A stretch of DNA of 64,000 nt. It comes from a virus. Its lineage: Duplodnaviria > Heunggongvirae > Uroviricota > Caudoviricetes. The position numbers and the translations under genes were made by a program. Under the pieces are notes generated by a model. That model did no database searches and was not told where the DNA came from. It worked only from the letters and a program-made list of their open reading frames with translations. Below are positions 1,697 to 54,732 of the stretch, one piece after another; positions within the stretch are counted from its first letter, which is position 1; each line of letters opens with the position of its first letter. The stretch covers positions 44,572 to 108,571 of IMG/VR virus record IMGVR_UViG_3300031555_002573; one strand, written 5' to 3'.

Positions 1697-3136
1697 ATGA
1701 TGGATTCACTATGGGGTGAGGACTTTAAGGTTGAAGAAACCCCAAAAGTAGCAAAAAAGATTGTAAATAAGATAAACAATCCTAAAGGTGTAAGTAAATC
1801 AAAAAGCTCTAAAAAGGTTGTTGTAGCATTGGATGAACAAATGGACCTTATTAGAGCCGAGGTACATAGGATACTAGGTAAGTACAAAGACAACACAATA
1901 GTAATCAAGACGAAAGAGCAATTAAAAGATTATATTGATAAGTCAATTAAAAATGGAATTATCGCCATTGATACTGAAACTAACAATAGTCTTGACCCCA
2001 TTACATGTAAGTTGATGGGTCCTTGTATCTACACTCCGGGTGAGAAGAATGCCTACATACCAATTAATCATATTAACCCAAATACAAGGGAAAGATTAAG
2101 CTGGCAATTGACAGAGCAAGATATCTACGAGGAATTTGATAGGCTTGTTGATACTCTTATTATAATGCACAATGGTAAGTTCGACTATCAAGTTATTAAG
2201 TGTACAACAGGTAATAAACTTAAGGTATATTGGGATACAATGATAGCTACTCGAATTCTTAATGAGAACGAAAAAAGAGCTGGCTTGAAAGAACAATATA
2301 TTGATAAAATAGACTCCTCTATTGAAAAATATGACATTGAGCATCTGTTTAAGGGATTAGAGTATGCAATCTTTGAACCTGAGTTGTTTGCTTTGTATGC
2401 CGCTACTGACGCTTATATGACTTATAAGTTGTATTTGTGGCAAAAGAAACAGTTTGATAAGGCAGAGCATAAAAAGTTGTTAAGATTGTTTCTTGATGTT
2501 GAAATGCCCATTATGGAAGTTGCAGCTGAAATGGAACTCACAGGCATTGAGATAGATAAGGAATATGCTCAAAGATTGAGTGATAAATATCATAGAATGC
2601 TTGACAATGTACAAGCAAAGATTGATGCTCAATTGGATGAATATAAAGATGTTATTGCACAGTGGAGACTTACTGATGAGGCAAATTTCCATACGAAGAG
2701 TGATAAACCAGATAAAAATGGTGAATATAAACTAAAAAAGTCCAAGAGTGAACAACTTAAAAGCCCTCCTGAACTTACAAGTCCGTCACAATTTGCTATA
2801 CTTCTTTACGATGTATTAAAGATTCCCCCAATAGACAAAGATAATCCAAGGGGTACCGGCGAGGATATCATAAAGAAAATAGACAACCCTTTATGTGCTC
2901 TTGTGTTGGAACAACGAGGAATCGATAAACTTATTGGTACATATATTGATAAGTTACCTGGGTGTGTAAATGAAAAAACAGGTAGACTTCATGCTCACTT
3001 TAATCAGATGGGAACTGAAACTGGACGATTTAGTTCGAGTGACCCAAACCTTCAAAATATTCCATCTCACGAAAAAGCGATTCGTATGATGTTTAAGGCG
3101 AGAGATGGGTATGTTATGGTCGGAAGTGACTTCAGT
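1697..3136 (+). CDS. polA: DNA polymerase I family, exon 1 (3'-5' exonuclease domain and N-terminal part of the polymerase domain)
   Basis: Exo I IIAIDTETNNSLDP, Exo II NGKFDYQV and Exo III YAATDAYMTYKLY are present, followed by RLHAHFNQMGTETGRFSSSDPNLQNIP. The ORF then runs into a stop right after DFSLQ, exactly where motif A DYSQIELR is expected. Confidence 0.8.
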
Positions 3137-4239
3137 TTACAAAATGTTGGCTGAAGTAAAACTAACTTAAGTCAGTGAACACTTATAGTAGTGGTTCATA
3201 TTATAAGTCAATACTGAGCAAAGATTTTACTCAAAAAGATTTAAAAATTGATTTTGTTGAGAAAAGTCATAAAAATTTACACTAAATTATATGTAGAAAT
3301 AATTTTAAAGGTGTGAATAATAATGACTATCTACAAAATAACGAACAATATAAACGGAAAGGTATATATTGGACAAACCATACAAAAATTAAGTTCGAGA
3401 TACAGTAACCACTTACAACGAGCAAATAGAGGAGTTAACACTCGACTTTATAATGCTATGCGTAAATACGGTACAATGAATTTCACGATTGATGTTGTGG
3501 AAGAGATTGATGACACTGTTGACAATCCAAAGATGGTTCTTGATGAAAGGGAAAAATATTGGATTGATTATTATCAATCTTATGGTAAGAAAGGATATAA
3601 CTCAACAGTTGGTGGGGATGTAAATCCAATGAACTGTGAATATTCTAAAAACAAACACGACTCTAAAATGAGAAGTGAAAGTGTTAGAAAATCCATATCA
3701 GACTCTTTAAAAGAATACAGGAGGCAGCACCCATTTTCAGAAGAGCACAGAAAAAGATTGTCTCAAAGTGCTATGGGAAACCACAACTTTGGTACTGGTG
3801 ATACCCGTTCTATTGGTGTCTACTGTATAGATAAAGATGGTGAAAGAAGAGAGTTCCATTCGATAAAGGATGCCACTGTGTGGTGGTTTGATACATATAA
3901 ACCTTTTGGTGATAAATATGTTCTTATAACTCTACAACGAAAAATAAGAGCCTCAATAGATAAGAAAAAGAAATTTGATATTGATTGGTTTAAAATTGAG
4001 TAAAATTTGTGTGAAGAGACTATCGAAAGCGTATATTAAGTAGGGATATTTAATAAAGTAAGTGAGTAGAGTACAGCCCAAGTGGGTTAGCTTACTAATG
4101 AGATTAGTTAGTAGTAAGTCTATTAAATGGAAACAGTTAGATAAGTATATAGAAAGACCTTTTATATACTTATAAGAGATAGTCCAATTACTATGGTGAC
4201 ATAGGAAGATTGTGGGAACGACAATCAAAATTTTAAAAG
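3137..4239 (+). mobile_element. putative group I intron in the DNA polymerase gene (about 1.1 kb) carrying a GIY-YIG homing endonuclease ORF
   Basis: Exon 1 frame ends ..GSDFS(t). The exon 2 frame opens at 4240, after a G, with QQEPRLLSGYSGDEN. The joined product DFS|QQEPRLLSGYSGDE matches Pol I motif A DYSQIELRILAHLSGDE. Boundaries were inferred by frame and homology only. Confidence 0.5.
3323..4003 (+). CDS. GIY-YIG homing endonuclease (intron-encoded)
   Basis: N-terminus IYKITNNINGKVYIGQT ... SSRYSNH ... LYNAM ... E..W is a classic GIY-YIG module; own RBS. Confidence 0.8.
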   Translation: MTIYKITNNINGKVYIGQTIQKLSSRYSNHLQRANRGVNTRLYNAMRKYGTMNFTIDVVEEIDDTVDNPKMVLDEREKYWIDYYQSYGKKGYNSTVGGDVNPMNCEYSKNKHDSKMRSESVRKSISDSLKEYRRQHPFSEEHRKRLSQSAMGNHNFGTGDTRSIGVYCIDKDGERREFHSIKDATVWWFDTYKPFGDKYVLITLQRKIRASIDKKKKFDIDWFKIE

Positions 4240-5274
4240 CAACAAGAACCAAGACTCTTGAGTGGCTACTCAGGTGATGAAAATATGATAAATGCATACA
4301 AACAAGGTAAAGACCTATATGCCACTATCGCTTCCAAAATTTATCACAACGATTATTGGGATAATATGGAGCATTTACAAGATGGTACAGCAAGTCCTGA
4401 AGGTAAGAAAAGAAGAAGTTCTGTTAAAGGACTACTACTTGGAATCCTTTACGGAATGGGGGCACAATCTATTGCTAATACAATTAAGGGAACGTATGAA
4501 GAGGCACAAAAGATTATCGATGACTTCTATCGAGAGTTTCCTAAGGTAAAAAGATGGATTGATGAGACCAACGAATACGCTAAAGCTTATGGATATGTGG
4601 AGGATATGTGGGGCAGAAGACGAAGATTGCCTGACATACAAATGCCAAAATACATTGTTAGTGTGTATGGAGAAAATAATAATAGTCTTGAGTTTAATCC
4701 CATAATCGGTGCAAAGAATATTGTTAAAAAAGAAAAACATCCAAAAGTGGCACTTTATGAATCTTTGTTGGATAAGGCAAAAACACTTAAGGATGTAAAT
4801 AAGATAAAAAGTGATGCAAAAAGAGATGGTGTAGTTATTCAAGACAATGGTGGATACATAAGTAGAGCAGAGAGACAATGTGTAAACGCTCGTGTCCAAG
4901 GTGGGGCGGCAACAATGTCTAAAAAGGCAATGATAAAAGTTTATCATGATGAGGAGCTTAAAAATCTGGGATTTAGATTGATGCTAGCTGTTCATGATGA
5001 GTTAATCGGAGAGTGTCCACGAGAAAATGCTAATAGGGTGGCGGACAGACTTTGTGAGATTATGAAAGTGTCTGCCCTACCAGAGTGCATTACACCATTC
5101 AAATGCGACCCCACGATAGAAGGTGTTTGGTATGAAACTGATTACTCTGATGTTATTAGAGAAGAGTACCAATCCTACTTGACCACAATGAGTAAAGAGG
5201 AAGCATTCAATAAACTATGTGAGATTCATTGTGAGTGTACTCATTCACAATTGAGAAATTTTATAGATAACTAA
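4240..5274 (+). CDS. polA: DNA polymerase I family, exon 2 (motif A remainder, motifs B and C)
   Basis: LSGDENMINAYKQGKDLYATIASKIY matches Pol I after motif A; RRSSVKGLLLGILYGMG matches motif B; VHDELIGE matches motif C. Confidence 0.75.
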   Translation, partial: QQEPRLLSGYSGDENMINAYKQGKDLYATIASKIYHNDYWDNMEHLQDGTASPEGKKRRSSVKGLLLGILYGMGAQSIANTIKGTYEEAQKIIDDFYREFPKVKRWIDETNEYAKAYGYVEDMWGRRRRLPDIQMPKYIVSVYGENNNSLEFNPIIGAKNIVKKEKHPKVALYESLLDKAKTLKDVNKIKSDAKRDGVVIQDNGGYISRAERQCVNARVQGGAATMSKKAMIKVYHDEELKNLGFRLMLAVHDELIGECPRENANRVADRLCEIMKVSALPECITPFKCDPTIEGVWYETDYSDVIREEYQSYLTTMSKEEAFNKLCEIHCECTHSQLRNFIDN

Positions 5275-44147: not shown

Positions 44148-44630
44148 ATGAAATTTGAAAAAATAGGATATCTTCAATTTAAGGCAGATAAGCTTGATGC
44201 TCTTATTGATTATGAGAGCATCAAACTCCCGAAAAGAGCGACAAAATACTCTGCTGGTTATGATATTTATAGCATTAGTGATTTTACGCTACATCCGGGG
44301 GAAACAATTAAGTTGCCTACTGGACTTAAGATGGAAATTGATGAAGACAAATTTCTGTTAATTGCTCCTCGTAGTGGTCAAGGATTTAGTTACAAGGTAC
44401 AACTATACAATACTGTTGGTGTAATTGATTCAGATTATTATAATAATAAGAACAATGATGGTCACATTTGGGTAAAGTTGTACAATGATTCTCCTGAGGG
44501 TAAAGTGCTTGAAGTACATAAAGGGGATGCCATTTGCCAAGGAATTATTCTTCCCTATTATAAAGTAGAGGGTGACATTTCACATGAGGAGCGAGAAGGT
44601 GGATTTGGGTCTACTTCGAGTATGATTTGA
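44148..44630 (+). CDS. dut: dUTPase
   Basis: AGYDIYS, PRSGQG, GVIDSDY and REGGFGSTS motifs. Confidence 0.75.
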   Translation: MKFEKIGYLQFKADKLDALIDYESIKLPKRATKYSAGYDIYSISDFTLHPGETIKLPTGLKMEIDEDKFLLIAPRSGQGFSYKVQLYNTVGVIDSDYYNNKNNDGHIWVKLYNDSPEGKVLEVHKGDAICQGIILPYYKVEGDISHEEREGGFGSTSSMI

Positions 44631-46670: not shown

Positions 46671-46757
46671 GCGGGATTGGTGGAATAGGCAGACACAAGG
46701 GACTTAAAATCCCTCGGTGGTGACATCGTATCGGTTCAAGTCCGATATCCCGCACCA
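46671..46757 (+). tRNA. tRNA-Leu(TAA), CCA encoded
   Basis: GCGGGAT/ATCCCGC acceptor; anticodon arm AGGGA-CTTAAAA-TCCCT; long variable arm; T arm ATCGG-TTCAAGT-CCGAT. Confidence 0.8.
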
Positions 46758-46820
46758 ATGTCGAAGTTTGCTAGAGTTCGTCGCGACTTTAACCCTAAAC
46801 TAGCTCTTCCTTTCGTAAAT

Positions 46821-46897
46821 GCAAGAGTAGTTCAACGGGTAGAATATAGTAGCCTTACAAGCACTATCTATTGGTTCGAATCCAATCTCTTGCACCA
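46821..46897 (+). ncRNA. tRNA-like gene with an aberrant anticodon region (possibly a degenerate tRNA-Val(TAC))
   Basis: Perfect acceptor GCAAGAG/CTCTTGC, D arm and T arm ATTGG-TTCGAAT-CCAAT, CCA encoded. Positions 27-43 do not form a 5-bp stem; an ATAGT/ACTAT stem encloses the 12-nt loop AGCCTTACAAGC. Confidence 0.4.
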
Positions 46898-46919
46898 TAC
46901 ATACTGTTTATTATAATAT

Positions 46920-46994
46920 GGCCCGGTGGTCAAGCGGTTAAGACACCGCCCTTTCACGGCGGTAACACGAGTTCGATTCTCGTCCGGGTCACCA
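46920..46994 (+). tRNA. tRNA-Glu(TTC), CCA encoded
   Basis: GGCCCGGTGGTCAAGCGGTTAAGACACCGCCCTTTCACGGCGG...; near-identical to the Bacillus tRNA-Glu. Confidence 0.85.
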
Positions 46995-47524
46995 TAACAA
47001 TGTAGATGCTAATATAGGCGGCGCGAAAAGGGTATAATGAAAAGTTATGCTAGTGGACATGTCGTTACCACCGAGAAGCGGGAACTGCTCCTATGGCTGT
47101 AGGTTCCTTACATTGTTTAGGCACAATAAGGTGTAATGAGCCTGTTGAAGTTGAAATGATATATACTTCTTCGGTACTGATACTTATCATGTGTTGTGTT
47201 TGAGGTTATTCCTACTACCTGTACCATAAACAGGGGAAGAGTTAGAGTGTAGGAACAGAATATGTAGCGTATATACATAAGGTCGCTAATAGATGATAAG
47301 ATTGTACTAACAACAATCTAATGCGCGATGAGTATCAGATATTAGTGGGCTGTATAAACTATAATAACTGAATAGTATGATACGAGGCGGCTGGCCCAGT
47401 AGGGTACATTGAACTAAATCGTAGTGTTAGTTCCTGTTGATAGGATGCGGTGAGGCGATGGCAGACCAACTTAAACTTTTGAAGTGTCTTGGCCATTAGT
47501 AGTTGATTACGACTAAAGTTATTG

Positions 47525-47598
47525 TAGTAGATATGCGGGATTGGTGTAATGGTAGCACAACAGCCTTCCAAGCTGTTGGTGCCAGTTCAAATCTGGTA
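47525..47598 (+). tRNA. tRNA-Gly(TCC), CCA encoded
   Basis: Anticodon arm ACAGC-CTTCCAA-GCTGT; discriminator U. Confidence 0.8.
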
Positions 47599-47632
47599 TC
47601 TCGCTCCAAGTAATTAAAAAATATTTTTTATA

Positions 47633-47665
47633 ATAGTTGACTTTTTGTAAAAAATATTGTATAAT
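47633..47665 (+). promoter_or_regulatory. conserved extended promoter
   Basis: taatagTTGACTttt..tgTATAAT; upstream of the Met-Gln-Ile-Val tRNA group. Confidence 0.6.
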
Positions 47666-47690
47666 ATATAGTGTTCTAAATAATAGATAA

Positions 47691-47767
47691 GGGCCTTTAG
47701 CTCAGTTGGTTAGAGCCCCCGGCTCATAACCGGTCGGTCGTAGGTTCGAGTCCTACAAGGCCCACCA
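47691..47767 (+). tRNA. tRNA-Met(CAT), elongator type (or Ile2), CCA encoded
   Basis: GGGCCTT/AAGGCCC acceptor (G1-C72); loop CTCATAA. Confidence 0.8.
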
Positions 47768-47773
47768 ACAACA

Positions 47774-47849
47774 TTGAGGTGTAGTCCAACGGTTAGGACA
47801 ATGGACTTTGACTCCATTGATGTAAGTTCGATTCTTGCCACCTCAGCCA
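47774..47849 (+). tRNA. tRNA-Gln(TTG), CCA encoded
   Basis: U1-A72 acceptor TGAGGTG/CACCTCA; anticodon arm ATGGA-CTTTGAC-TCCAT. Confidence 0.8.
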
Positions 47850-47983
47850 ACCCACAGTATAGTTGTGTTTAGAATTATTAATTAGAAGCATATCTGATGG
47901 GAAGGATATGCGGAAGGGTACAAAGAAGACTATACCGGATTTGTAAATTAAGTGTCGTTGCTTACCCCTCAACGAATGTACAT

Positions 47984-48059
47984 GCACCACTAACTCAATG
48001 GTTAGAGTACCTGGCTTATATCCAGTTAGTTCGGGGTTCGAATCCCTGGTGGTGTACCA
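47984..48059 (+). tRNA. tRNA-Ile(TAT), CCA encoded
   Basis: Anticodon loop CTTATAT on a CTGG/CCAG stem; T arm CGGGG-TTCGAAT-CCCTG. Confidence 0.65.
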
Positions 48060-48130
48060 ATACGGAAGCTGAAGATTATGGGTTCAGTAGTGTAGGAGTT
48101 TCGGAAGGTTGACTTCTACAGCGTACATAT

Positions 48131-48207
48131 GCGGGATTAGCTCAGCTGGTTAGAGCACCTGCCTTACAAGCAGGGGGTCATTGGTTCGAGTCCAATATCC
48201 CGCACCA
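48131..48207 (+). tRNA. tRNA-Val(TAC), CCA encoded
   Basis: GCGGGAT...CCTGC-CTTACAA-GCAGG...ATTGG-TTCGAGT-CCAAT. Confidence 0.85.
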
Positions 48208-48470
48208 GTTAAATTAGAATAACTGTAATTGAGGGATGGAAAAGTCTAATAGGGTTGAGGTCTTACAGTGTTGTAAGTGAGTCAGCTTGGAGACTCAAGA
48301 GGATGTGGAGAGGTCAGCGTCTAAGTGACACAAGATTAGCTTATGAACGCGTGGTAAATCTTATTGGATGGGGCACTAGATAGGATGTGCTAAGGAGTAG
48401 GAGTAATACCTATGCCTACTGTGTAAATTATAGTTATCTAGTTTAATTTTTAAAGACAATATATTCATAT

Positions 48471-48553
48471 GCCGATGTGGTGGAATGGCAGACACGCCTG
48501 TCTTAGGAGCAGGTACGAAAGTGTGAAGGTTCGAGTCCTTTCATCGGCACCAA
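48471..48553 (+). tRNA. tRNA-Leu(TAG), CCA encoded
   Basis: Loop CTTAGGA; long variable arm; acceptor GCCGATG/CATCGGC. Confidence 0.8.
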
Positions 48554-49268
48554 TCGGGAATCCCGGGTACTTATTAGTTCATACCGGTAAGTAAGCAATG
48601 TCCCGACCCCAAGAGGTCAAGCCCCTCTGTACAAGGCTATGCGGCACTGTCCGAAACCAAGCAGCGTTTGTAAGTATACTCGTTAAAACTTTCCGCGATT
48701 CAGTTTGTTTGTAGTTGTTACCGCGTTCCAGTGTAAGAGGAATAGATAAAGACTTCAACTGCTCGGATTTGTTTACTCCGATGAAGCATCATAAGGAATC
48801 CAATGATGGTAAACAAAATAAGGTGCCACGAAGCTTTATCAATTTTGATAAGGATTGTTACCCAAAGTACAAGGGAGTGCAGAAGCAGTGGTAAATGGAG
48901 CGGAATGAACAGCCTTATTTTTGAATAATGTGCCGCATTCACCTCAACAATTCGTCGAAAGATGTTGGTGTTACGAAACGGCTAAGTGGAATTTGAGAGA
49001 CAGCATTATTCTGTGGTATCAAGATATCTTGACTAAGTGAGTAACATTCAGTTACGATGCCACAATAGACTTGCCATAGGTCGAGATACCTTCGAGGCTT
49101 GGAGCAACGAAGTAAAATAAAGTCCCCAAGATGTTACTAGGTCAGAACAACTAGTCGCCGCAAGGTAGAGCACAAGTGTTAGAGGTCGATAGGGTATATG
49201 GCACGAGCCCGATTAGGTAATGACAAGGCGTGTAAATGTGCAGAATCGCGAAAAACCTCCGCTTATAT

Positions 49269-49348
49269 CTAGGTGTTGGGGAGTTTGGTCACCCCGCCAG
49301 TTTTGGGAACTGGAGAACTCGTGAGTTCGAATCTCACCACCTAGACCA
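49269..49348 (+). tRNA. tRNA-Pro(TGG), CCA encoded
   Basis: C1-G72 acceptor CTAGGTG/CACCTAG; anticodon arm CCAGT-TTTGGGA-ACTGG. Confidence 0.75.
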
Positions 49349-49614
49349 GCCGGAAGAGATGGTCCTTCATCACCCTCACTTCACAAGGTAGCTCTTGTAT
49401 AAAGAAGAATGATGAACACATTTTTGGTTTGATGTAAGACTTTCTATGAGGTTAAGAAAGAAAGGAAACTCATGTTGCAACAGGGTTGGTAAACCTCTCT
49501 AACGGGAGAAAGCTTCCAATATATGTGCAGATTGATATCGGATTATATCGGGGAGGAGTCATTACCTCTTGGGGACGCCCTTGGCAGGTTCAAGTCCTGC
49601 ACTGTACACTATAT

Positions 49615-49691
49615 GCAGATGTAATTCAGTTGGTTAGAATGCTCGTCTGATACGCGAGTCGTCAATGGTTCAAATCCATTCATCTGCACCA
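49615..49691 (+). tRNA. tRNA-Ile(GAT), CCA encoded
   Basis: Anticodon arm CTCGT-CTGATAC-GCGAG; T arm AATGG-TTCAAAT-CCATT. Confidence 0.8.
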
Positions 49692-49745
49692 TTTAGATGT
49701 AATTTCGTTGAAAGTACTATATATTATTTTTAACGAAATGAGTAT

Positions 49746-49819
49746 GCGGGTATAGTTTAATGGTAAAACCCCTGCCTTCCAAGCAGATGATGACAGTTCG
49801 ATTCTGTTTACTCGCTCCA
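49746..49819 (+). tRNA. tRNA-Gly(TCC), second copy, CCA encoded
   Basis: Loop CTTCCAA; acceptor GCGGGTA/TACTCGC. Confidence 0.75.
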
Positions 49820-49994
49820 ATAAGTGAATAGCGACTTAGTTAACTGTTGCAACAGTTACAAACTGCTTGTGGGATGCGAAACCCCTGAAGTATAACTCAC
49901 TACAATACATGGAGGAAAAAGCCATCAATGGACTTCTGCAAGATGTAAAATACAGGAGGTAAAGGTTGTTATTAGTGAGATGACAATCATATAT

Positions 49995-50079
49995 GGATGA
50001 GTTGCATAGTGGCAATTGCAGCGGACTGTAAATCCGCCGTCTCACGACTACGCTGGTTCGAGTCCAGCCTCATCCACCA
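49995..50079 (+). tRNA. tRNA-Tyr(GTA), CCA encoded
   Basis: Anticodon arm GCGGA-CTGTAAA-TCCGC; long variable arm; T arm GCTGG-TTCGAGT-CCAGC. Confidence 0.85.
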
Positions 50080-50420
50080 GAGGGAAGTTGACTTTGAGTA
50101 TTTCAAACACACCTACTAATAGTGGTAGTAAATACTATACATGGGTTGATTTGCACGGGGCAAATAAGTAGTATAATAAGTACAGAAGTAAAAACTGCGG
50201 AAGAAACCGCCAAGCGGGTCCGAACCGGTGTAGGATGGACGAGTCTCTCTGGAAAGTTATATGAAAAAAGAGCGGTTCGAGTCCGTTATAACCCACCACT
50301 GGTAGAAATGTTAGCAAAAGAAGTCACTACCTCAAACGATTGTATCAACTTAATAAGTGTAGATTATTCGGTATCAAATTGACGGATGTGCGGTTAGCCG
50401 ACCTTAAGGTGTTATATACG

Positions 50421-50520
50421 GATAAGTAAACTGAAATGGGTACAGTAGGGTAATTGCCTGTACGGTTCGATTCCGTCTTGGTCTTGGCAGATATGCTGGT
50501 TCGAGTCCAGTCTTATCCAT
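50421..50520 (+). ncRNA. tRNA-like element (about 100 nt) with a perfect acceptor stem, D arm and two T-arm-like hairpins, no canonical anticodon arm, no encoded CCA
   Basis: GGATAAG...CTTATCC acceptor; D arm ACTG/CAGT; hairpins ACGG-TTCGATT-CCGT and GCTGG-TTCGAGT-CCAGT. Confidence 0.35.
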
Positions 50521-50603
50521 CAAATAAGCCCTGTCCGTGGTAAAAGTCGGTAAAGAGGTGTAATCCCACCAGGCAATTAAATAAGTGAGTTAAAAGATTA
50601 TTT

Positions 50604-50679
50604 GGGGGAGTAGCCTAACGGCTAGGCACACGACTTTTAATCGTGACCACGTAGGGTTCGACTCCCACCTCCCCCACCA
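50604..50679 (+). tRNA. tRNA-Lys(TTT), CCA encoded
   Basis: GGGGGAG/CTCCCCC acceptor; anticodon arm CACGA-CTTTTAA-TCGTG; weak T stem. Confidence 0.75.
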
Positions 50680-50825
50680 GGCGCTGATAGGTAGCAAATA
50701 ATAGCAGCGACAGTGGGCACTACAAAGTGTGTTAACAAACTAATATGTGTGGTAACCGAGTACCTTAAGCGGTGTTAAATATGGAGACATGGGTTAGAGG
50801 ATTAAATCACCTCTCTCCATATATG

Positions 50826-50908
50826 GCTATGTAACTCAATCGGTAGAGTTTTTCGGTACCACTTAACAAAGAGTTGTTAGTTGCAAGTTCGAGTCTTGCC
50901 ATAGCCAA
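50826..50908 (+). ncRNA. tRNA-like element lacking an anticodon arm
   Basis: Acceptor GGCTATG/CATAGCC, D arm ACTC-AATCGGTA-GAGT and T arm GCAAG-TTCGAGT-CTTGC are canonical. The 33 nt between them contain only a TAACAA-AGAG-TTGTTA hairpin. No CCA. Confidence 0.4.
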
Positions 50909-50922
50909 ATATTTTTTATTTA

Positions 50923-50956
50923 ATAGTTGATTTTCAAATTATTTTATTGTATAATG
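50923..50956 (+). promoter_or_regulatory. conserved extended promoter
   Basis: taatagTTGATTttc..tgTATAAT; upstream of tRNA-Arg. Confidence 0.55.
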
Positions 50957-51007
50957 AATATGTCAAGTGAGTTTGAACACATCACTATGCTACCAATATT
51001 AATATAT

Positions 51008-51085
51008 GCGCCCTTAGCTCAGCAGGAACAGAGCATCTGCCTTCTAAGCAGAGGGTCGGGGGTTCGAGTCCCTCAGGGCGTGCCA
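51008..51085 (+). tRNA. tRNA-Arg(TCT), CCA encoded
   Basis: Anticodon arm TCTGC-CTTCTAA-GCAGA. Confidence 0.8.
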
Positions 51086-51291
51086 TTTGCAGGTAGCTCC
51101 TGCTGATTTGAGAGGACAGTATTGCCCTCAATAAGAATGACAATGACATACTACAATATGTTTTAGTGACATAATCAGCTGTAACGATGTGCTACTGTCG
51201 TGTACGAGTATTAGAACAAACGGCACAATGACGGTATGATAGGATAGGCTCCTTGATGGGATGTATTGTATTGTGTAAGTATACTTGATAT

Positions 51292-51384
51292 GGAGGAGTA
51301 CCCAAGTAGGTGAAGGGGCGAGTTTGCTAAACTTGTAGGTCGGAGTAATTCGGCGCGGGAGTTCGAGCCTCCCCTCCTCCGCCA
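51292..51384 (+). tRNA. tRNA-Ser(GCT), CCA encoded
   Basis: 3-bp D stem; loop TTGCTAA; long variable arm; T arm GGGAG-TTCGAGC-CTCCC. Confidence 0.8.
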
Positions 51385-51563
51385 GCTGTCGTACATGGAC
51401 GTCGCGACATTAAATGCAGATAAGCACACAAGAAGGTTGATGTCCCGTTTCAATTGATTTGGGAGTTAAAATCAAAGGTTCTTAGCTATTCCAGAAACTA
51501 AGCGTAAGTGAGAATGAAAGTGCACGCATTGTGTAACATGTAGTACGAGAAGCTACCTTATAC

Positions 51564-51652
51564 GGAGGAGTAGCGAAGTGGTCATAACGCGGCGGTCTTG
51601 AAAACCGTTTGTCCGAAAGGACACGTGGGTTCGAATCCCACCTCCTCCGCCA
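51564..51652 (+). tRNA. tRNA-Ser(TGA), CCA encoded
   Basis: Loop CTTGAAA; variable-arm hairpin GTCCGAAAGGAC; T arm GTGGG-TTCGAAT-CCCAC. Confidence 0.8.
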
Positions 51653-51671
51653 CAAGTAAACACAGATAGAG

Positions 51672-52490
51672 GTGATTTCTATGTATAGAGGATGTATCCC
51701 ATCTAAGGTTGATATCAGAGATTATAAAATTACATATTCTGCTTCTGATGTTCTACCTGCTAAGTTCAGATTAACAAAACTTCCCAAAGTAAAAGACCAG
51801 AAGTGTGTTAATTCTTGTGTAGCTCACGCTACAAGTACTATTTTAGAATACTTTGATTATCAAGATGGAAAAGGTCATGAACTATCCACAAACTTTCTTT
51901 ATGGTGGACAAAAAAAGTTGTGTGGTTACGAGGGACAAGGAATGTATCTTAGGGATGCGTGTGAAATTGCGAAAGATTATGGTGACCCGATAGAATCCTT
52001 GTGTAAGGGAAATGATGAGGTTCCTGATTCTTGGGCAGTAGCAGAAGAAGCACTTGATAATCAAGAGGCGTTGGACAACGCTAAATTTTTCAAAATAAAA
52101 TCTTATTATAGATGTGATAACATAGGTGCCATCAAGAAAGCCGTTCATAAATATGGTCCTGTTCTTGTTTGTATAAAATGGTATAATGATTTTTCAGTTG
52201 ATAGTACAGGAGTAATTCACAGTACACAAACAGGAGACTACGGATATCATGCCGTGATTATTTATGGATGGAATGACAAAGGATTTTACATTCAAAACTC
52301 TTGGGGTAGAAACTGGGGAAAGAATGGCAGAGCAATTCTTCCATATGAAATTCCAGTTGAAGAGGGAAGAGTATTGATTGATGATTCTATTGACATTGAT
52401 AAAAAAGATGTTGTTGTTCCAAAAAGAAACTCTTTGTTAGACATCTTTTGCAAAATTGCCAACTGGATTATTAATTTATTTAAAAAATAA
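51672..52490 (+). CDS. papain-like C1 family cysteine peptidase
   Basis: QKCVNSCVAHAT (Gln/Cys), GYHAVIIYGW (His) and NSWGRNWGKNG (Asn-Ser-Trp-Gly) in canonical order; GGAGGTG RBS. Confidence 0.55.
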   Translation: MISMYRGCIPSKVDIRDYKITYSASDVLPAKFRLTKLPKVKDQKCVNSCVAHATSTILEYFDYQDGKGHELSTNFLYGGQKKLCGYEGQGMYLRDACEIAKDYGDPIESLCKGNDEVPDSWAVAEEALDNQEALDNAKFFKIKSYYRCDNIGAIKKAVHKYGPVLVCIKWYNDFSVDSTGVIHSTQTGDYGYHAVIIYGWNDKGFYIQNSWGRNWGKNGRAILPYEIPVEEGRVLIDDSIDIDKKDVVVPKRNSLLDIFCKIANWIINLFKK

Positions 52491-52498
52491 TTTTTATA

Positions 52499-52532
52499 AT
52501 AGTTGATTTTTTAGTTTTTTTATTGTATAATA
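52499..52532 (+). promoter_or_regulatory. conserved extended promoter
   Basis: taatagTTGATTttt..tgTATAAT; upstream of tRNA-Thr and tRNA-Ala. Confidence 0.55.
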
Positions 52533-52608
52533 ATATATGGTGCTTAAAGGTAAGATAAGACATATGTGCTTATGAAGCGTTTTGACCATAACTCGAAACG
52601 AATCACAT

Positions 52609-52684
52609 GCTGGATTAGCTCAGTTGGTAGAGCAACGCACTTGTAATGCGTAGGTCGTCAGTTCGAGTCTGACATCCAGCTCCA
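52609..52684 (+). tRNA. tRNA-Thr(TGT), CCA encoded
   Basis: Anticodon arm ACGCA-CTTGTAA-TGCGT. Confidence 0.85.
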
Positions 52685-52687
52685 TAT

Positions 52688-52763
52688 GGGCCCGTAACTC
52701 AGCTGGGAGAGTGCCACCCTTGCAAGGTGGAAGTCGTGAGTTCGAATCTCATCGGGTCCACCA
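52688..52763 (+). tRNA. tRNA-Ala(TGC), CCA encoded
   Basis: Anticodon arm CCACC-CTTGCAA-GGTGG. Confidence 0.85.
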
Positions 52764-53548
52764 TGTTGTACCTTGAAAGATGAATACATACTAACTCAGT
52801 GCTAAACAACGAATACGCTTTCGTTGCTGAGAAAGGTTGAATGTGCTGGGAACACACGAAGACGGATACGTTGGATAGTTCGCCGGACTCTAATTCGTGA
52901 GGGTTAGAGGTAAGAGGTTGATAGCCCAAACACAAGACCTTGTACTAGAGTTATTCCCAAATAAGGGCAGAATGTGTATCGTGGGAACAATAGAAAGATT
53001 GAGTGAACAGCTCTTTCCGAATCCAAGTTAGGGTTTAGCCGGTGACTGTATCAAACCTTGGAAATACCAACAATCCCATTGGTCGTGAAGCATAGAAATA
53101 TGTGTATAAGATATGCATGTCATCTCCAAGTAGCCGAAGACCTTGACAAACTGATAAATTATCTACTTGAGATAGTAAATAATTTTCTGAACAGACGGTG
53201 AAAGGTACAGGTAACCAGACCTGTGGTAGCTCGTGTGGAAAGCGGCGGATATCTAATCCGTGCGGCTAACTCCTCGTGGCAAGAAGTTAGAGGTCGCTCC
53301 TCGAAGCTCAGACTTGTCATCTACATAGCTTAATATATTTGAGAATAATTGTAGCAACCCGAAGGGGTAGTAGATGTATTTGTCTTTCAGGGTACAATTT
53401 ACAATACATAGACCTGTTGGTTATGCTTACTATAAGAGTAGTTCAGCTCATTACTTGATGAAATTATAAGTAAGAAACACAGTAGATGCTAGCTCTATTT
53501 TCTTCGGAAGCAGGTCATTGGCCAGGGGATGCGTCCTTTGGCTTATAT

Positions 53549-53622
53549 CGCAGTGGTGGAGCAATGGTAGCTCATCGGGCTCATAATCCGAAGACGAGGT
53601 TCGAATCCTACGACTGCACCCA
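53549..53622 (+). tRNA. initiator-like tRNA-Met(CAT) with irregular acceptor and T stems, CCA encoded
   Basis: TGGAGCAATGGTAGCTCATCGGGCTCATAATCCGA closely matches the Bacillus tRNA-fMet core. C1 x A72 mismatch; only 3 bp in the T stem. Confidence 0.5.
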
Positions 53623-53771
53623 GCTTTTTAGGTTTATACACATTGTTTACAGTTAAGCATATCAAACTACAAACAAGTGGGTGTATTTACTAGTTTTCTA
53701 CCATAAGATGTAAACTAGTCGGTGGTTATGAAGTACCTGTGGAATACCGTCATAGAAAAACTTCATTATAT

Positions 53772-53859
53772 ATCCGAATGGTGTAAGGTAGCATATCACA
53801 GAGTGCTCTAAAAGAGACGAGATTGTGAGGATGAGGTTCGAGTCCTCTTTCGGGTACCA
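53772..53859 (+). ncRNA. tRNA-like element with acceptor, D and T arms and CCA but no anticodon arm
   Basis: ATCCGAA/TTCGGGT acceptor; D arm TGGTGTAAGGTAGCAT; T arm TGAGG-TTCGAGT-CCTCT; ACCA 3' end. No 5-bp stem plus 7-nt loop anywhere in the 37-nt central region. Confidence 0.35.
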
Positions 53860-54097
53860 AACTTCTTTGGTATAGTATAATGCGTCTTATCTATGCAATC
53901 CAAGGCTATGATAAGCGACCTATAACAGAAGACAAATTGATGCATCAATCGTTTCACCAAGGTGTGAGCGTGTCAACATTCCAAGAGTAAGAACTTTGGT
54001 TGAGGAATGAGAAGTTTATTTATATAAAGAATGAACAGTTAGCAACGCTTGAGGTAACCTTATAAAAACTCAGCCCTGCTACCATATGGCTCCATAG

Positions 54098-54174
54098 TAC
54101 AGTTGGTCAGTACGCTAGCCTGTCACGCTAGAGGTCGCGGGTTCGAACCCCGCTGGAGTCGCCAATCTTCCATA
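54098..54174 (+). tRNA. tRNA-Asp(GTC), CCA encoded
   Basis: Anticodon arm CTAGC-CTGTCAC-GCTAG; discriminator G. Confidence 0.85.
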
Positions 54175-54199
54175 ACTAATTTCTATAATTTTCTATTTA

Positions 54200-54233
54200 A
54201 TAGTTGAAATAATTTACAATATGTAGTATAATA
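54200..54233 (+). promoter_or_regulatory. conserved extended promoter (TTGAAA -35)
   Basis: taatagTTGAAAtaa..gtagTATAAT. Confidence 0.5.
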
Positions 54234-54262
54234 AATACGAAGTAAAAACAAGGAGAGTACTT

Positions 54263-54571
54263 ATGGAAACTACAAATCATTGGAATAGTAGAAATGATAG
54301 ACTCGCGTTCATTCAGAAAGAAATTGGAATTGGTAAGCCTGTTAAAACATTTAAGTGGGACAAGGGGCATCCTAATGGTCCAGAGCTACATACTATAACT
54401 GATACTGGAATTATTATCATTAGAAATGCTCTAACCAATAAACTTGTAACTACTTTAATTGCAAGGCCCGGACAAATAAAAAGATACTATGACAAACTAA
54501 AGACTGAAGTTCCGGAATTCATAATGAAACTTGCTTATGAACACGAGCAAAAAGGTTATAATTACATATAA
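54263..54571 (+). CDS. hypothetical protein
   Basis: AAGGAGAG RBS; downstream of the promoter at 54204. Confidence 0.5.
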   Translation: METTNHWNSRNDRLAFIQKEIGIGKPVKTFKWDKGHPNGPELHTITDTGIIIIRNALTNKLVTTLIARPGQIKRYYDKLKTEVPEFIMKLAYEHEQKGYNYI

Positions 54572-54584
54572 AATTATTATTAAA

Positions 54585-54618
54585 ATAGTTGACAAACAAC
54601 TCTATTAAGAGTATAATA
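54585..54618 (+). promoter_or_regulatory. conserved extended promoter (TTGACA, 17 nt, TATAAT)
   Basis: aaatagTTGACAaac..gagTATAAT; upstream of tRNA-Asn. Confidence 0.6.
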
Positions 54619-54655
54619 AATAGCATAGTAAACAAACTGCTATGCTATTAGATAT

Positions 54656-54732
54656 TCCCCTGTAGCTCAGCTGGTGGTAGCATCTGACTGTTAATCAGAG
54701 GGTCGCTGGTTCAAGTCCGGCCGGGGGAGCCA
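54656..54732 (+). tRNA. tRNA-Asn(GTT), CCA encoded
   Basis: Anticodon arm TCTGA-CTGTTAA-TCAGA; preceded by a 10-bp leader hairpin. Confidence 0.8.

Follow-up and report, generated by a model that had tools for sequence, protein, structure and literature searches.

We studied an interrupted family A DNA polymerase gene in a 64,000-nt stretch of phage DNA (Caudoviricetes; positions 44,572 to 108,571 of IMG/VR virus record IMGVR_UViG_3300031555_002573). This whole stretch is called the window in the following, and all coordinates given without a locus name refer to it. The gene lies on the plus strand, and according to the open reading frame (ORF) table and the raw sequence it consists of exon 1 (1697-3136) and exon 2 (4240-5274), separated by 1103 nt at 3137-4239. 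We interpret this insert with high confidence as a mobile group I intron located between the Ser and Gln codons of motif A (D-F-S|Q-Q-E). An original prediction, made from the sequence alone, had proposed a polymerase gene split at motif A by about 1.1 kb of intervening DNA, and its coordinates are borne out. Its reading of the insert as a group I intron is likewise supported, namely by the pairings P1 and P10 at the splice sites, a terminal guanosine, the core helices, a covariance model match and homologous introns at the same site.

The polymerase gene and its exon junction

Exon 1 starts with ATG 1697, 7 nt downstream of the Shine-Dalgarno (SD) sequence GAGGAGG (1683-1689), and encodes the 3'-5' exonuclease domain and the polymerase domain up to Asp-Phe-Ser of motif A. 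Pfam assigns to it DNA_pol_A_exo1 (1.8e-15) and positions 19-160 of the DNA_pol_A profile. The exon ends with GAC TTC AGT (Asp-Phe-Ser, 3128-3136), where AGT at 3134-3136 is the Ser codon. The frame had been thought to stop directly after DFS; in fact it continues for five codons (LQNVG) to TGA at 3152-3154, and unspliced RNA is predicted to yield a product of 485 amino acids (aa) ending ...DFSLQNVG. Exon 2 extends from Gln-Gln-Glu of motif A to the stop codon; it opens at 4240 with CAA CAA GAA CCA AGA (QQEPR) and matches DNA_pol_A from profile position 161. Neither the ORF table nor the sequence reveals a start codon with an SD at its 5' end, and the first candidate start is TTG 4258, the use of which would lose Gln-Gln-Glu of motif A.

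Joining U3136 to C4240 recreates the conserved sequence exactly, and the predicted spliced product is an intact polymerase of 824 aa. The original prediction had joined U3136 to A4240 behind G4239, of which the terminal G4239 stands, while base 4240 has to be corrected to C. The DNA_pol_A profile runs on without interruption from position 160 in exon 1 to position 161 in exon 2; thus, the proposed junction is exact at the level of the protein family model. Intron-less relatives show VGSDFSQQEPRLL unbroken. Among the relatives fetched with the spliced protein, D-F-S-Q-Q-E-P-R is contiguous in six intron-less loci, the viral contigs L004-L007 and the metagenome contigs L109 and L110, all with the motif A context ...VG(S/A)DFSQQEPRL.... 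The latter two are the closest relatives (81% and 86% aa identity, respectively) and read GACTTTTCT|CAACAGGAACC around the junction. In a wider survey, 47 of 67 non-duplicate polymerase loci of the clade are contiguous at the Ser|Gln point. A megablast search of the whole gene against GenBank phages returned no match. Given the continuity of the Pfam profile, the six contiguous relatives and the fold of P1 (z-score -4.0 against shuffled sequences), the split is not a chance arrangement. According to our own mapping onto DYSQIELR, the insertion site corresponds to Ser707|Gln708 of motif A in the numbering of E. coli Pol I.

Structure of the ribozyme

The intron comprises 1103 nt (3137-4239, plus strand) and ends in the omega G, G4239. 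A script check found the helices P1, P10, P3, P4, P5, P7, P8, P9, and P9.1 fully paired and in canonical order. At the 5' splice site, the P1 hairpin (3129-3157) pairs the exon end ACUUCAGU (3129-3136) with the internal guide GCUGAAGU (3150-3157) in all eight positions, including the U·G wobble U3136·G3150, which was read from the sequence and confirmed by script. The P1 loop, adjoining the guide, carries UGUUG (3145-3149), which pairs in five of five positions with CAACA, the first bases of exon 2 (4240-4244), to form P10. Both the pairing around the 3' U of exon 1 and P7 had been named by the original prediction as features to look for, and both were found: P7 is composed of GACUAUC (4018-4024) and GAUAGUC (4178-4184) with 7/7 pairs, its 3' strand lying within a conserved AAGAGAUAGUCC element.

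P3 (CUAACU 3162-3167, AGUUAG 4135-4140) has 6/6 pairs. It is followed by P4 enclosing P5 (3172-3217), detected by minimum-free-energy folding, where P4 is formed by UCAGUG (3172-3177) and UACUGA (3212-3217) and P5 by 3181-3190 and 3199-3208. A tentative P6 pairs GCAAA (3218-3222) with UUUGU (4006-4010); together with the adjacent P6a hairpin (3223-3268, z-score -3.6) its 5' part occupies 3218-3268. Between P7 and the 3' strand of P3, a peripheral extension (4025-4134) was delineated by motif search and family alignment and includes the P7.1 hairpin (4034-4055), the P7.2 region and the conserved GAGUAGAGUACAGCC (4064-4078). The P8 hairpin (4141-4173) has 14 bp and a fold z-score of -6.6, and covaries both in the intron family and among the introns at the same site described below. 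The remaining 3' part (4174-4239) is made up of J8/7 and the P7 3' strand, P9 (4191-4195/4200-4204) with a GUGA loop, P9.1 (4208-4213/4221-4226), a tail and G4239. The hairpin z-scores against shuffled controls range from -3.2 to -6.6, and a minimum-free-energy fold of the ORF-deleted intron recovers P1, P4, P5, P6, P7.1, P8, P9, and P9.1 unaided.

The insertion of P7.1/P7.2 between P7 and P3' is a trait of subgroup IA2. Described IA2 introns typically have a P2 between P1 and P3. Here only AAAA separates the end of P1 (3157) from the start of P3 (3162), which leaves no P2, and for this reason the intron is called IA2-like rather than strictly IA2.

Family membership

A BLASTN search showed that 3991-4184 matches unannotated gaps inside split genes of the Staphylococcus phages Machias (terminase) and qdsa001 (Silviavirus); the qdsa001 gap scores 42 bits in Rfam. 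With the motif GAGUARAGUACAGCC, 45 intron cores were collected from viral contigs, and a covariance model, R1, was constructed from a subset of 29 independent phage group I intron cores, excluding the window. In the alignment of these 29 cores P7 is invariant, and P8 and P9 covary. Five of the source loci of R1 (L108, L053, L077, L080, and L018) carry six Rfam Intron_gpI matches of 55-83 bits. Scanned with R1, the 64-kb window contains a single match at 4012-4212 (103.9 bits, E 8e-22), while the introns of Machias and qdsa001 score 122.7 and 110.8 bits, respectively. Besides this intron, neither further copies of the J8/7-P7 motif nor further R1 matches were found within the window. Judged by sequence and model scores, the 3' half of the intron clearly belongs to a family of phage group I introns with a P7.1/P7.2 extension.

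Introns at the same site in other polymerase genes

The polymerase survey revealed homologous introns at the identical Ser|Gln position in five other, distantly related phage polymerase genes. Two of them, in L157/L158 and L200/L210, are ORF-less and 243 nt long (3758-4000 in L157, 2298-2540 in L200). The intron of L212 (958 nt) carries a GIY-YIG ORF in the same loop as the window intron, and those of L217 (754 nt) and L224 (788 nt, 3213-4000) carry other ORFs. R1 detects four of the five with 41-63 bits and misses L224. Common to the introns at this site are the exon end ...CAGU|U(U)A... and a guide that reads GGCUGAAGU or is a matching variant.

Every helix is paired in each of these introns, although P3 occurs as six sequences in six introns and P4 in four variants, and a per-helix check showed that P3, P4, P8, and P9 covary. 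In L212, the exon codon for Phe (UUC, TTC in the DNA) is changed to Tyr (UAC, TAC) together with a matching change in the guide. As in the window, P3 follows P1 after AAAA in L157, L200, L212, L217, and L224, which delimits a lineage without P2. At E <= 1e-3, Rfam leaves L157, L200, L212, and L224 undetected, and yields a partial P4-P6 match in L217 only. Thus, the standard Rfam group I model seems to overlook a compact intron lineage without P2, which is found in at least six phage lineages at the motif A site of their family A polymerases.

Some members show peculiarities of their own. In L224, the last intron base seems to be A (…GGAACUA|CAACAAG) where a terminal G is usual, and the conserved GAGUAGAGUA element is missing. 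In L217 and L224, a P5 motif CUAAG...UAUG resembles the 11-nt receptor of GAAA tetraloops, and the P9 loop is GAAA; by contrast, L9 is GUGA in the window intron and its P5 is an A-U-rich helix.

The intron-encoded endonuclease

The insert had been predicted to contain a GIY-YIG ORF with its own ribosome-binding site, and this holds. The gene (3323-4003, plus strand, 226 aa) is preceded by GGUG at 3310-3313 upstream of its ATG, and together with its leader it occupies the P6 loop region, with the P6a hairpin (3223-3268) on one side and the P6 3' strand on the other. Pfam GIY-YIG scores 35.1 bits against a cut-off of 22.6, and the best match among PHROG homing endonuclease families has an E-value of 6e-27. 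The N-terminal 93 residues align with the structures of the I-TevI catalytic domain (1LN0/1MK0, 7e-5), and the equivalents of I-TevI Tyr6, Tyr17, Arg27, His31, Glu75, and Asn90 are kept.

Of all relatives found, a free-standing GIY-YIG ORF in L164 is the closest, with 51% identity across the entire protein (3e-76). It came from the polymerase survey; a search of viral contigs with the whole protein returned only relatives of the N-terminal domain with at most 47% identity. In L164, two parts of a split polymerase gene flank this ORF, and the Ser|Gln site follows about 130 nt downstream of it. Residues 92-215 constitute a module that recurs at an equivalent place in L115 (7e-26) and L156 (4e-33), there on endonucleases whose N-terminal domain is different. 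The GIY-YIG protein of the L212 intron is related to the window enzyme in its N-terminal part only. As the C-terminal module recurs on other endonucleases at this place, the protein looks like a modular enzyme, the DNA-binding module of which is tied to this polymerase region.

Upstream of the gene, a hairpin at 3275-3318 (fold z-score -3.2) holds GGUG 3310-3313 in its 3' arm. Modelled in this way, the hairpin buries the SD and possibly restrains translation of the endonuclease. A weak promoter-like site, TTTACA-16-AATAAT (3276-3303), overlaps the 5' arm of the hairpin; promoter-like sites in this region are no commoner than in shuffled sequences, and an intron-internal endonuclease promoter is therefore a weak candidate. 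In L212, a perfect promoter-like site TTGACA-17-TATAAT is located at about 3140-3175 just upstream of the GIY-YIG ORF of the intron, which suggests that endonuclease genes in this intron lineage may be independently transcribed.

Intron mobility and proposed mechanism

The endonuclease protein falls into a five-member cluster at 90% identity, one member of which is located on the 151.7-kb contig L149 in the same arrangement. Over its 1103 nt the intron shares 98% identity between the window and L149, in contrast to 76% in exon 1 and 65% in exon 2. Outside the intron, the high identity is lost within about 10 nt on the upstream and 21 nt on the downstream side. The non-coding parts of the intron are 99-100% conserved. 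Three differences in total concern the ribozyme. The substitution 3201 U to C, the sole one in the 5' part, turns a G·U into a G-C pair in P5, and 4049 U to C does the same in P7.1; the third is taken up below.

An intron that is far more similar than its exons, while the closest relatives of the gene are intron-less, is the pattern expected of recent horizontal transfer by homing, and the comparison with L149 indicates such a recent transfer. A stretch at 3038-3075, identical in the window and L149, was considered as a co-conversion tract and rejected, since differences at 3121-3126 intervene and the protein is highly conserved there.

Under the proposed mechanism, the intron RNA would fold after transcription into a compact group I core composed of P1, P3-P9 and the P7.1/P7.2 extension, with no P2. 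The internal guide would form P1 with the last bases of exon 1, including U3136·G3150, and P10 with the first bases of exon 2. Two transesterifications, started by free guanosine and completed at the terminal G4239, would join U3136 to C4240 and give rise to an mRNA for the intact 824-aa polymerase. The GIY-YIG endonuclease would be translated from its own ribosome-binding site within the P6 loop region. By analogy with I-TevI, the enzyme may cut intron-less polymerase alleles near the motif A site in a mixed infection, and recombinational repair would then copy the intron into the cut alleles; both its activity and its target are presumed from this analogy. Read in this manner, the locus should be annotated as one 824-aa polymerase and not as two fragments, and the intron itself adds another example to the mobile group I introns of phage replication genes.

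Alternative explanations

A number of observations weigh against a functional intron of this type. The splicing event is one that we infer from sequence. Unlike most phage IA2 introns, this one has no P2; the register of P6 is tentative; and an A-U pair of P8 is broken by the third ribozyme difference from L149, 4165 U to G. In the endonuclease, the equivalent of I-TevI His40 is Asn, and the C-terminal DNA-binding motifs give weak Pfam matches (NUMOD3, E 0.13; I-HmuI NUMOD-like, E 0.058). The Rfam Intron_gpI scan (RF00028), proposed earlier as a check, did not turn out as hoped: no match was obtained on the whole window, on 3050-4350, which includes the whole intron, or on the 5' part 3100-3340. 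The 3' part 3990-4270 alone reaches 31.8 bits (E 1.2e-6), with the AAGAGAUAGUCC element and P9 aligned, and thus stays below the curated gathering score of 50 bits. We attribute this failure to the 783-nt loop that carries the ORF and to the missing P2. The ORF-less 243-nt introns at the same site are missed by Rfam as well.

One alternative is a decayed group I intron that no longer splices, in which case the polymerase gene would be a pseudogene or another polymerase would be needed; the deduced nature of splicing, the low Rfam score and the absence of P2 all fit. Yet nothing in the structure points to decay. The core helices are all intact; of the three ribozyme substitutions between the window and L149, two change G·U into G-C pairs; and the two exons retain long open frames that include every polymerase region matched by Pfam. 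Moreover, the same arrangement is found in two otherwise diverged phage genomes of about 142-152 kb. Since P2 is absent in all six introns at this site, its absence is a trait of the lineage rather than a sign of decay, and we regard decay as highly improbable. An equally small likelihood is given to a polymerase in pieces, where a free-standing homing endonuclease gene has split the gene and the halves are translated separately and assemble without RNA splicing. The relatives L001, L115, L156, L164, and L171 indeed have separately initiated polymerase ORFs near this position with endonuclease genes between them, and the window endonuclease is 51% identical to the free-standing one of L164. 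The window differs from these loci in its complete ribozyme core and in the exact P1 and P10 at the junction, and it contains neither the additional C-terminal segment nor the mini-ORF of the split alleles (see below). Furthermore, both a start codon and an SD are missing from the 5' end of exon 2, TTG 4258 would drop Gln-Gln-Glu, and the non-coding parts of the intron remain 99-100% conserved with L149 despite diverged exons.

An intein or another insertion at the protein level can be dismissed. Inteins do occur in this polymerase family, as in Clostridium phage CS19 at GAK|TGRFSSS, but here the exon 1 frame, which is closed across the insert, meets a stop after five insert codons, and the endonuclease ORF has its own start. 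A mobile, self-splicing group I intron remains our preferred reading of 3137-4239.

Comparison with known introns and cassettes

The original prediction had likened the arrangement to the introns of SPO1-, Twort- and T4-like phages. In kind this comparison stands; the insertion site differs, and the endonuclease family is not the HNH type of SPO1 and Bastille. With the T4 td intron and I-TevI, the window intron shares the IA type, the location in an essential gene of DNA metabolism, a GIY-YIG ORF looped out of the P6 region and a homologous catalytic domain, and in both the ribosome-binding site may be sequestered in a hairpin, as we infer for the window. The host gene in the window is a DNA polymerase instead of thymidylate synthase, P2 is missing, and the C-terminal DNA-binding part is not recognisably that of I-TevI. 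The Twort-type IA2 introns of Staphylococcus phages (orf142; Kayvirus/Silviavirus) resemble it in the P7.1/P7.2 extension and in the conserved GAGUAGAGUACAGCC...UUAAAUGGAAA elements. They differ in host gene and insertion site, and the 5' half of the window intron is diverged and has no P2.

Intron sites in phage family A polymerases were reported at positions 674 (SPO1, SP82, Bastille, Pf-WMP3), 676 (phiL7), and 881 (PhiI, W31) in E. coli numbering, where the introns carry HNH endonucleases (PMC3428280, 2012). The window intron has in common with these SPO1-, phiL7- and PhiI-type introns the IA2-type structure with a homing endonuclease, and the insertion into a conserved functional region of the same enzyme family. 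In contrast, it is inserted at Ser707|Gln708 (own mapping) rather than at 674, 676 or 881, and encodes a GIY-YIG protein instead of an HNH nicking enzyme. Ser707|Gln708 is not among the three sites of PMC3428280; the Bastillevirinae intron paper is without site positions, and later work on Twort- and Bastille-like phages lies outside this comparison.

Further insertions were observed in the relatives, a short way upstream in the same polymerase region. L001 carries an ORF-less group I intron at 1060-1293 (Rfam 76.5 bits), located at NPNL|QNIP near the classical 674-676 sites of SPO1 and phiL7. L116 has an in-frame intein-like insert at about 1800-3033 that ends ...VHN|C, and the CS19 intein mentioned above is of the LAGLIDADG type and lies in the polymerase coding sequence of L151.

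The T4 mobA/gene 60 cassette consists of a C-terminal extension, an endonuclease, an N-terminal extension, a copy of a deleted segment and a protective bypass insert (bioRxiv 10.1101/2022.08.31.505936). That paper makes no mention of DNA polymerase. The relatives of the window polymerase, not the window itself, resemble the cassette in an extended ORF1, an endonuclease, an ORF2 with a short N-terminal extension and segment copy, and a stop-containing gap. The link to the window is its endonuclease, which belongs to a family found in the cassettes of the relatives. The differences are that the window has an intron instead of a gap, that the gaps in the relatives are 5-15 nt long and not 50 nt, and that bypassing is putative there.

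Split alleles in related polymerase genes

In 14 of the 67 loci, a short insert is located exactly at the Ser|Gln junction, amounting to 11 distinct sequences of 5-15 nt. All 11 begin with a stop codon. Eight of them end in a Ser codon, which is identical to the Ser codon before the stop in five cases and shares two bases with it in three. Five gaps are out of frame, and four in-frame ones contain no start codon. The L164 allele, for instance, reads TCG TGAGTTCG CAA. In locus coordinates, the first Gln codon behind the gap is located at 3597 in L164, 3098 in L115, 4192 in L113, 5345 in L116, and 2732 in L001, and at 4001 in each of L156, L160, L171, L174, L194, and L231.

Cassette-like split polymerase genes extend over 421-4129 in L115, 1084-4622 in L164, 2117-5068 in L156, 1332-5050 in L171, and 35-3757 in L001. 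The inspected split alleles begin with an N-terminal polymerase ORF that is lengthened by an extra segment of about 60-70 aa (motif GWK.VKELSVGD, without a match in Pfam) and is often followed by an endonuclease gene (GIY-YIG, an HNH-like type or LAGLIDADG). A mini-ORF (e.g., MKKSIKTRVPYTLVGSDFS) then re-encodes the stretch of polymerase that leads up to the gap (...Y.LVGSDFS), and the gap and the rest of the polymerase follow. L187 and L205 are split without a gap, and in L202 the extra segment is fused in frame. The extra segment was considered as one half of a split intein, a candidate that was discarded because a conserved first nucleophile and a terminal His-Asn are both lacking and Pfam gives no match.

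By its sequence, the gap pattern resembles the grammar of translational hopping as at T4 gene 60, and hopping is putative in these loci. Only tentatively, and with more doubt than conviction, we consider that one endonuclease family, directed at the Ser|Gln junction of motif A, may use the window intron and the cassettes of the relatives as two alternative vehicles. If this were true, the window would represent a case in which a free-standing endonuclease was caught invading an intron at its own target site, or the reverse move; the intron lineage is also known without an ORF (L157, L200). Gaps at the same phosphodiester would then require gene-60-like translational hopping for a functional polymerase to be made. 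If ribosomes do hop the gaps, the window intron and the gaps of its relatives would be two ways to interrupt the same endonuclease target, and the gap alleles may constitute a further, independent family of sites for programmed translational bypass, next to T4 gene 60. With ORF-less introns, endonuclease-bearing introns, free-standing cassettes and gaps, this one site offers a natural series for the study of how endonucleases and introns become associated.

Genomic context

According to contigs carrying the same proteins, the phage genome has a size of approximately 142-152 kb. Apart from the polymerase locus, the window harbours 23 tRNA genes at 46671-54729, all of them on the plus strand. 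Within this tRNA gene array, a full-length ROOL RNA is located at 52771-53389 (Rfam 288.9 bits, E 3e-65).

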